Positions 54,661 through 54,802 are shown, counted from the stretch's first letter. The stretch is 64,000 bases of DNA from Escherichia phage HMD-6 (PQ505080.1), one strand, 5' to 3'. Translations and numbers: made by a program. Notes: a model not told the origin generated them from the letters alone.

Positions 54661-54691
54661 GAGTTGTCTCTTGTGCTCTGTAGGTGGAGAA

Positions 54692-54720
54692 ATCTTATCA
54701 AGTGCTTGGGAAGATGTCAA
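54692..54720 (-). promoter_or_regulatory. leftward sigma70-like promoter, TTGACA-17 bp-TAAGAT (read on - strand)
   Basis: Reverse complement reads TTGACA tcttcccaagcacttga TAAGAT with TGA extended -10. Confidence 0.45.
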
Positions 54721-54733
54721 CCTCAAAAACGTG

Positions 54734-54762
54734 TTGACTTTACTCTAAATCCACGATATAGT
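54734..54762 (+). promoter_or_regulatory. rightward sigma70-like promoter, TTGACT-17 bp-TATAGT
   Basis: -35 54734-54739, -10 54757-54762; only 13 bp separate the two -35 boxes. Confidence 0.5.
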
Positions 54763-54802
54763 GCACCCATTCGAAAGAAAACGAACACAGGAGCACCTAA
54801 TC

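Follow-up and report, generated by a model that had tools for sequence, protein, structure and literature searches.

The closest described counterpart of the locus analysed here lies between genes 10 and 11 of phage rV5. In the rV5 paper, 33 sigma-70 promoters spread over the genome were predicted, four transcription units were proposed (10-1-238-164, 11-26, 27-81 and 82-163), and genes 10 and 11 were the only ones with bidirectional promoters between them (Kropinski et al., 2013, Virol J 10:76, PMC3606486). Its Table S4 gives P010 as CAAAAACGTG TTGACT...TATAGT and P011 as TTGACA...TGATACGAT (PMC3606486), and P11 is annotated as a feature in the RefSeq record NC_011041. For Certrevirus, another genus of the same subfamily as the phage studied here, the phage CB7 paper gives an 'early promoter' consensus, AAAA(N3)TGTTGAC(N19)TATAAT, which is itself only predicted (PMC7344957). 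With regard to experimental evidence, we found no transcriptome, start-site, timing or RNA polymerase binding data in the literature for Vequintavirinae or rV5-like phages.

Several features of divergent transcription are relevant to such a locus. Contacts of the alpha-CTD and wrapping of DNA extend the footprint of RNA polymerase upstream, and divergent transcription leaves the DNA that separates two promoters negatively supercoiled, an effect that can stimulate both of them (twin-domain model). Symmetry-derived bidirectional promoters, described by Warman and colleagues in 2021, reportedly have an overlapping or shared -10 region and starts about 7-25 bp apart. The starts of the divergent promoters PR and PRM of phage lambda are 82 bp apart. 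According to secondary citations of the lambda work, two polymerases bind at once, formation of the open complex at PRM is slowed by the polymerase at PR, and this effect is suppressed when 10 bp are deleted between PR and PRM.

Results

Phage, gene layout and flanking genes

The window is the whole stretch of 64,000 nucleotides that was analysed. In a DNA search with the region around the gap, 118 phage records matched in all; over 2.8 kb, the identity was 97% with Escherichia phage vB_EcoM_SYGMH1, and with FV3 and rV5-type phages it was 94-96%. Because of this identity, the source phage is assigned to Vequintavirus as an rV5/FV3-like E. coli myophage. Sixteen unannotated 'Campylobacter phage' records (MG0656xx, host C. 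jejuni) are also about 91-97% identical to this E. coli Vequintavirus, which suggests that their hosts were mislabelled or that the isolates were contaminated by coliphages.

The structural genes form a + strand block from position 1 to about 47.35 kb, a leftward block covers about 47.4-54.66 kb, and the genes run rightward again from 54.80 kb. The gap of 142 bp at 54661-54802 is the sole divergent gap of the window, with an Srd-like gene on its left and a gp010-like gene on its right.

The first leftward gene (53671-54660, - strand, ATG at 54660) encodes an Srd-like protein of 329 aa, the orthologue of rV5 gp011. It matches phrog_3118 (1e-111), phrog_4592 ('decoy of host sigma70') and phrog_1400 ('Srd anti-sigma factor'). 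Its N-terminal part alone matches Srd, sigma-decoy and endonuclease-VII-like PHROGs (E = 1e-9 to 1e-13), and the C-terminal third resembles, by eye, a degenerate repeat of the N-terminal domain (alignment A2). Public labels for this gene and its orthologues vary from 'anti-sigma factor' and 'HNH endonuclease' to 'anti-termination' and 'hypothetical', and the neighbouring DUF2201 protein is likewise mislabelled 'HNH endonuclease' in RefSeq records. The first rightward gene (54803-55702, + strand) encodes a protein of 299 aa without an assigned function, the orthologue of rV5 gp010; its residues 1-299 match phrog_12338, a profile of 299 positions. This protein gave no Pfam hit, so that nothing in Pfam backs the label 'putative alpha 1-3 fucosyltransferase' under which it was deposited. 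A Pfam DNA-binding domain was found in neither of the two flanking genes.

The leftward unit of about 7.3 kb starts with the Srd-like gene and a DUF2201 metallopeptidase/VWA gene and has its probable 3' limit at a GC-rich hairpin located between an A-run and a T-run (47366-47387). This candidate bidirectional terminator likely closes the leftward unit at the junction with the structural gene block. Just beyond the hairpin, a + strand ORF of 178 aa (47452-47988) had no PHROG match, overlaps a - strand ORF (47602-47979) and is probably spurious. Another perfect GC-rich hairpin, AGGGGCC-ATT-GGCCCCT at 53650-53666, lies in the 33 nt that separate the Srd-like stop codon from the DUF2201 start; downstream of it on the - strand comes TCTGGAGTTTTAATG, which is no canonical T-run, and the hairpin might be a weak attenuator or an element for mRNA stability or processing. 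The rightward unit contains gp010, a MoxR-like ATPase gene and rIIA in this order and continues with genes past the end of the window.

Two predicted back-to-back promoters in the gap

The original prediction had placed in this gap a leftward TTGACA-17-TAAGAT and a rightward TTGACT-17-TATAGT with their -35 boxes 13 bp apart, and reading of the sequence together with a consensus scan confirmed every one of these elements. On the - strand, the -35 hexamer TTGACA (54715-54720), the orthologue of that of rV5 P011, matches the consensus at 6/6 positions and is separated by a 17-bp spacer from the extended -10 element TGaTAAGAT (54692-54700; TG at 54700-54699, hexamer at 54697-54692). On the + strand, the -35 hexamer TTGACT (54734-54739; 5/6), the orthologue of that of rV5 P010, is directly preceded by TG, and the -10 hexamer TATAGT (54757-54762; 5/6) follows after a 17-bp spacer. 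Each promoter has 10/12 consensus matches in total. The 13 bp between the two -35 boxes (54721-54733) include an A5/T5 tract at 54725-54729. The predicted transcription starts are both A residues located 7 nt past the -10 hexamers, at 54685 (-) and 54769 (+), that is, 84 bp apart, and would give leaders of 25 nt and 34 nt, respectively. As is typical for sigma-70 promoters, both sites combine a -35 close to TTGACA with a -10 close to TATAAT that retains A2 and T6 at a distance of 17 bp, inside the usual range of 17 ± 1 bp, they have a gene with its own ribosome-binding site downstream, and their functional elements evolve more slowly than the spacers and flanks.

To estimate the chance expectation, we used 20,000 dinucleotide-preserving shuffles of the 142-bp gap. 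A + site appeared in 1.05% and a - site in 1.3% of the shuffled gaps, both appeared together in 3/20,000, and a back-to-back pair in 0/20,000, so the pair is not due to chance. Consensus matches taken singly are frequent, with 23 in 10 kb at a threshold of 9/12 against 17.5 ± 3.7 expected, barely above the shuffles. At a threshold of at least 10/12, there are 37 sites on both strands of the window. When counted from the window site list, the sense-oriented ones reach about 0.8-0.9 per kb in both divergent units, compared with about 0.3 per kb in sense and about 0.17 per kb in antisense orientation in the structural block. The higher density of sense sites in the divergent units fits sigma-70-driven units. 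Such sense-oriented sites recur all along both units, and the divergent pair is the first of several promoters in each of them, being the head of two multi-promoter units and no switch.

Start codons and ribosome-binding sites

The first start codons had been placed at 54660 (-) and 54803 (+), and this placement is borne out from several sides. The deposited annotations of close relatives use the same two starts, the Srd-like homologues of other genera start at an ATG equivalent to 54660, the PHROG profile of gp010 aligns end to end with the short form, and in rV5 the reading frame of gp010 is closed by a stop codon 12 nt upstream of the ATG. As to the ribosome-binding sites, which had been called plausible on both sides, this holds well for the rightward gene, where a strong AGGAG (54789-54793, + strand) lies 9 nt 5' of the ATG at 54803 and is kept across the genus, but the leftward gene has only a weak AAGAGA (54667-54672, - strand). 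The sister clade described below carries AAGGA at the position of AAGAGA.

It had also been argued that the longer ORF starts lie upstream of the predicted transcription starts, and this is indeed the case for both TTG 54726 and GTG 54761. TTG 54726 is 6 nt upstream of the leftward -35 box, a second in-frame TTG at 54720 forms the first half of the TTGACA box, and the rightward -10 shares bases with GTG 54761. SYGMH1 does not have the GTG of the long rightward ORF. We therefore reject the longer starts as by-products of the promoter hexamers, on the grounds of the rV5 stop, the missing GTG in SYGMH1 and the N-termini of the homologues.

Conservation in Vequintavirus and a sister clade

We aligned 12 Vequintavirus genomes of several species, including V5, FV3, V18, FFH2, slur16, murica and the BASEL phage DrSchubert. 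Among these genus members, only 1/24 columns of the four hexamers is variable, namely position 3 of the leftward -10, which reads TAAGAT or TACGAT, while the extended TG and the rightward -10 TATAGT are invariant. By contrast, 10/17 columns are variable in each 17-bp spacer (20/34 for both), and the remaining gap columns including the spacers are variable at 42/118 positions (Fisher p = 0.001 against the hexamers; p = 2.5e-5 with the sister clade included). Both -35 hexamers are invariant in 15/15 sequences of alignment A3, and the leftward TTGACA is invariant in every Vequintavirinae relative examined.

Contigs of 118-141 kb from the IMG/VR metagenome 3300045988 (L006-L009 and L019-L021) appear to represent an uncultured sister clade of Vequintavirus, with no near-identity DNA match in a collection of 50,697 phage records. 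Their Srd-like protein is 64-66% identical to that of the window, and their promoters show the same 13-14-bp architecture as in Vequintavirus. The sister clade keeps both -35 boxes, the TG, the TAnnnT of both -10 hexamers and the 17-bp spacings, although the spacer sequences are unrelated. Its leftward extended -10 is TGtTAGTGT or TGcTAATGT, and its rightward -10 is TATTCT at the same spacing as TATAGT of the genus. Between the window and this clade, 19-20/24 hexamer columns are identical, as against 44-46% of the other gap columns (p = 4e-4 to 2e-3). The central T-tract (T5 or T6) is kept in both the genus and the sister clade. Since the hexamers are nearly invariant while the spacers drift, selection appears to act on the promoters, and the sequence comparison supports both sites as real sigma-70-type promoters under selection.

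The promoter pair in other genera of Vequintavirinae

From other genera, we sampled Seunavirus (4MG, SSE121 and EspYZU14), Mydovirus (KpS8), Henunavirus (Hena1), the unclassified ChuuTotoro and further IMG/VR contigs, whose Srd-like proteins are 32-40% identical to that of the window. Toward the Srd-like gene, they have an invariant TTGACA, a spacer of 16-17 bp and a -10 that is mostly GATAAT (otherwise CATAAT, AATAAT, TATTAT or similar). On the opposite side, the -35 is TTGATT, TTGAAG or TTGCTT and the -10 is TATGCT, TATGAT, TATCTT, TATAGT or TATTCT, again with a spacer of 16-17 bp. The spacer sequences are unrelated, but TAnnnT at 16-17 bp is kept in all relatives in which the pair was found. 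Across the subfamily, this is the pattern that purifying selection on a pair of functional sigma-70 promoters should leave.

By the distance between their -35 boxes, the pairs form two classes, 13-14 bp with a T5 or T6 tract in Vequintavirus and the sister clade, and 3-4 bp with the core AATCAA-GTG-TTGACA in the Seunavirus, Mydovirus and Henunavirus phages examined. The classes differ by 10 bp, roughly one turn of the helix, and none of the Vequintavirinae examined had a spacing in between. Compared with the window, the Srd junction of these three genera shares the Srd-like gene downstream of the invariant TTGACA, but its -35 boxes are 3-4 bp instead of 13-14 bp apart and its opposite -35 (TTGATT, TTGAAG or TTGCTT) is weaker.

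A divergence between genes 81 and 82 of rV5, outside the window (NC_011041 65800-67600, about 920-975 therein), reads TTGAAA, GTG, TTGACA, so that 3 bp separate its -35 boxes. Both this rV5 81/82 junction and the Srd junction of Seunavirus, Mydovirus and Henunavirus resemble the window in the divergent logic and in -10 hexamers located at 16-17 bp on both sides. P081 at the 81/82 junction has been published (PMC3606486). Toward gene 82, we noticed a candidate P082, TTGACA-17-CAGGAT with the TG of an extended -10, which has no counterpart among the entries of the promoter table that were compared (PMC3606486).

Just upstream of the Shine-Dalgarno sequence of the Srd-like gene, 4MG, SSE121, EspYZU14, Hena1 and KpS8 share a leader motif, (A)ACGGG-N5-CCC, found as GGGAATAACCC, GGGAACAACCC, GGGATAGTCCC and GGGTAAGACCC. 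It is absent from the Vequintavirus leader and possibly forms a small hairpin. In a comparison by eye with the IHF consensus, the AATCAAGTGTTGA core has one mismatch in the other genera and two in the window.

Comparison with rV5 P010/P011 and the Certrevirus consensus

In alignments A1 and A3, the rV5 pair P010/P011 occupies the orthologous position between the gp010 and gp011 orthologues. It shares with the window TTGACT-17-TATAGT, the 13-bp gap and the upstream CAAAAACGTG. The leftward -10 differs by one base, being TGATACGAT in rV5 and TGATAAGAT in the window (C and A, respectively), and the spacers are polymorphic between the two phages. Since P010 and P011 are the orthologues of the two window sites, the pair is already known, and our finding is a rediscovery of a published prediction; both the rV5 pair and the window pair are bioinformatic predictions.

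The rightward promoter also resembles the Certrevirus consensus. Its + strand sequence AAAAACGTGTTGAC at 54725-54738 fits AAAA-N3-TGTTGAC, the whole reading AAAA-ACG-TGTTGAC-...-TATAGT with an A-tract in the position of an UP element and TG before the -35, although TGTTGAC is followed by N18 up to TATAGT in the window and by N19 up to TATAAT in the consensus. The leftward promoter differs from the consensus in that it has no A-tract and reads GGTTGACA. AAAANNNTGTTGAC occurs in exactly two exact copies in the window. The other copy, at 52285-52298 (-) in the 3' end of the DUF2201 gene, heads TTGACA-17-GATACT (52289-52261), and this site (52261-52298, - strand), located upstream of the next leftward gene, is likely an internal promoter of the leftward unit.

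Discussion

We consider it highly probable that the gap contains two back-to-back promoters dependent on host sigma-70, the orthologues of P011 and P010, each of which fires outward and heads a transcription unit. Host RNA polymerase with sigma-70 would recognise both of them on the incoming DNA without any phage factor. Recognition of the leftward promoter would rely on its perfect -35 and extended -10, and that of the rightward promoter on near-consensus hexamers together with the upstream A-tract, possibly a proximal UP element. Transcripts would begin near 54685 (-) and 54769 (+) and carry short leaders with a Shine-Dalgarno sequence before the ATG at 54660 and 54803, respectively. With predicted starts about 84 bp apart and no overlap of the core elements, both polymerases can probably bind at once. 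We infer promoter function, the positions of the start sites and the 'early' timing from the sequence.

The original prediction called this gap the early control region, a description of which only the promoter pair heading two units stands. It is not 'the' early control region, because no operator was found and numerous sense-oriented sigma-70-like sites are present in both units. The pair is nevertheless most likely active early, judging from its apparent reliance on host sigma-70 and from the gene content (the Srd-like gene and rIIA). Hints of an early type are that the rightward promoter fits the upstream half of the Certrevirus 'early' consensus and that an Srd-like host-takeover gene and rIIA lie downstream. 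On the other hand, a sigma-70 promoter alone is no proof of early timing, because such promoters are spread over the whole genome in rV5 (PMC3606486). We also considered a structured leader RNA or riboswitch and rejected it, since the only match from an Rfam scan of 53500-56000 with permissive settings was to a group II intron, below threshold (E = 0.54) and within the gp010 coding region.

Other functions of the gap have to be weighed against the simple promoter pair. Together, the -35 boxes make up an inverted repeat, GTCAAC-N11-GTTGAC, which may be read as the operator of a dimeric phage or host regulator that switches both units. In favour of this, back-to-back -35 boxes necessarily give a 6-bp inverted repeat, the central T-tract is conserved, and feedback on both promoters is conceivable, the first leftward gene encoding a putative anti-sigma factor or sigma decoy. 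However, the repeat search detected no inverted repeat of at least 8 nt in the gap. Moreover, the palindrome is unlikely to serve a dimer since the spacing of the half-sites shifts by 10 bp between clades (3-4 bp versus 13-14 bp), which fits a function as -35 boxes, and on either side a -10 hexamer is conserved along with the -35 box, always 16-17 bp from it. No gene for a DNA-binding regulator flanks the gap in the window, and Srd-type proteins have been described as acting on sigma or polymerase, not as DNA-binding proteins (PMC3606486). An operator is therefore very unlikely in our view. Even less can be said for a gap that is primarily a replication origin, with promoter-like boxes that are incidental or serve transcriptional activation of the origin, a role that we regard as scarcely probable. 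The cumulative GC skew does have a local minimum at about 54.5-55 kb, and the rV5 authors, who searched for an origin by skew, saw a change near the orthologous position (PMC3606486). They put the skew changes down to the orientation of transcription (PMC3606486), and in the window the skew likewise switches at every change of transcription direction (maximum at about 47 kb, minimum at about 54.7 kb), so the minimum is explained by the switch of direction at this site. Iterons, tandem repeats and a marked AT-rich unwinding stretch are all absent in or near the gap, whose base composition (60 G+C in 142 bp, 42%) is like that of its surroundings. Neither a tandem repeat nor an Rfam element of note was found in the gap or the surrounding 2.5-3.5 kb, and the search for direct repeats in the gap gave only an 11-nt two-copy repeat (54690-54700 and 54808-54818), probably due to chance.

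The geometry had further been taken to imply mutually interfering promoters. This does not follow, because the core elements are separate and do not overlap, and interference is not evident from the sequence. By analogy with lambda, it is plausible that a polymerase at one promoter slows or blocks the other, so that the pair would be a competitive control point for the two early units, but we think this unlikely on balance. In its favour, the distance of about 84 bp between the predicted starts is close to the 82 bp of lambda PR/PRM, where, according to secondary citations, a polymerase at PR hinders PRM in forming its open complex but leaves the initial binding there unblocked. Upstream contacts of polymerase through the alpha-CTD and DNA wrapping would reach the -35 region and spacer of the other promoter, and steric competition would be even more plausible in the other genera, in which the -35 boxes are only 3-4 bp apart. 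Yet the lambda effect depends on spacing, being suppressed by the 10-bp deletion, and thus a similar distance is no guarantee of interference. Both promoters are near consensus throughout the subfamily, which would be odd if each crippled the other substantially, and negative supercoils between them may stimulate both. Independence or co-stimulation mediated by supercoiling would fit the data equally well, and any coupling of the two promoters, negative or positive, is hypothetical.

The likeness to lambda is limited to two divergent sigma-70 promoters that do not overlap and whose starts, predicted ones in the window, are separated by about 82-84 bp. Lambda has three operators for CI and Cro, a switch between lysis and lysogeny, and one strong and one weak promoter, whereas the window, from a virulent phage, has two near-consensus promoters, with no operators found and no flanking repressor gene. 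Of the hallmarks of a lambda-type switch, the gap shows the start spacing of about 80 bp, as predicted from the sequence, but neither repeated operators nor flanking DNA-binding regulators. Warman-type promoters resemble the window in divergent transcription from one short region, but the window has separate elements with starts about 84 bp apart.

The spacing classes allow a more speculative reading, to which we attach little probability, that the distance between the -35 boxes is a tuned parameter and, together with the Srd-like sigma decoy, makes up a self-limiting module of early expression without a DNA-binding repressor. Whether there is mutual exclusion, kinetic interference or independent firing of two host polymerases could then depend on this distance. 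The two classes possibly go back to one insertion event in the phylogeny and therefore carry little statistical weight.

Our finding confirms a routine feature, that is, an ordinary host-type promoter pair heading two divergent units in an rV5-like phage, and settles the correct start codons of both flanking genes. It is of modest practical value for a better annotation of start sites and start codons in Vequintavirus genomes, which are used in O157 typing and biocontrol, and the compact, strongly conserved bidirectional promoter cassette could serve engineering. What is mildly new is that the whole subfamily conserves this cassette, with two classes of spacing that differ by about 10 bp. These classes are a natural experiment on how interpromoter distance relates to coupling, the question raised by lambda PR/PRM, and would matter for the biology of Vequintavirinae if, and only if, the two classes behave differently.
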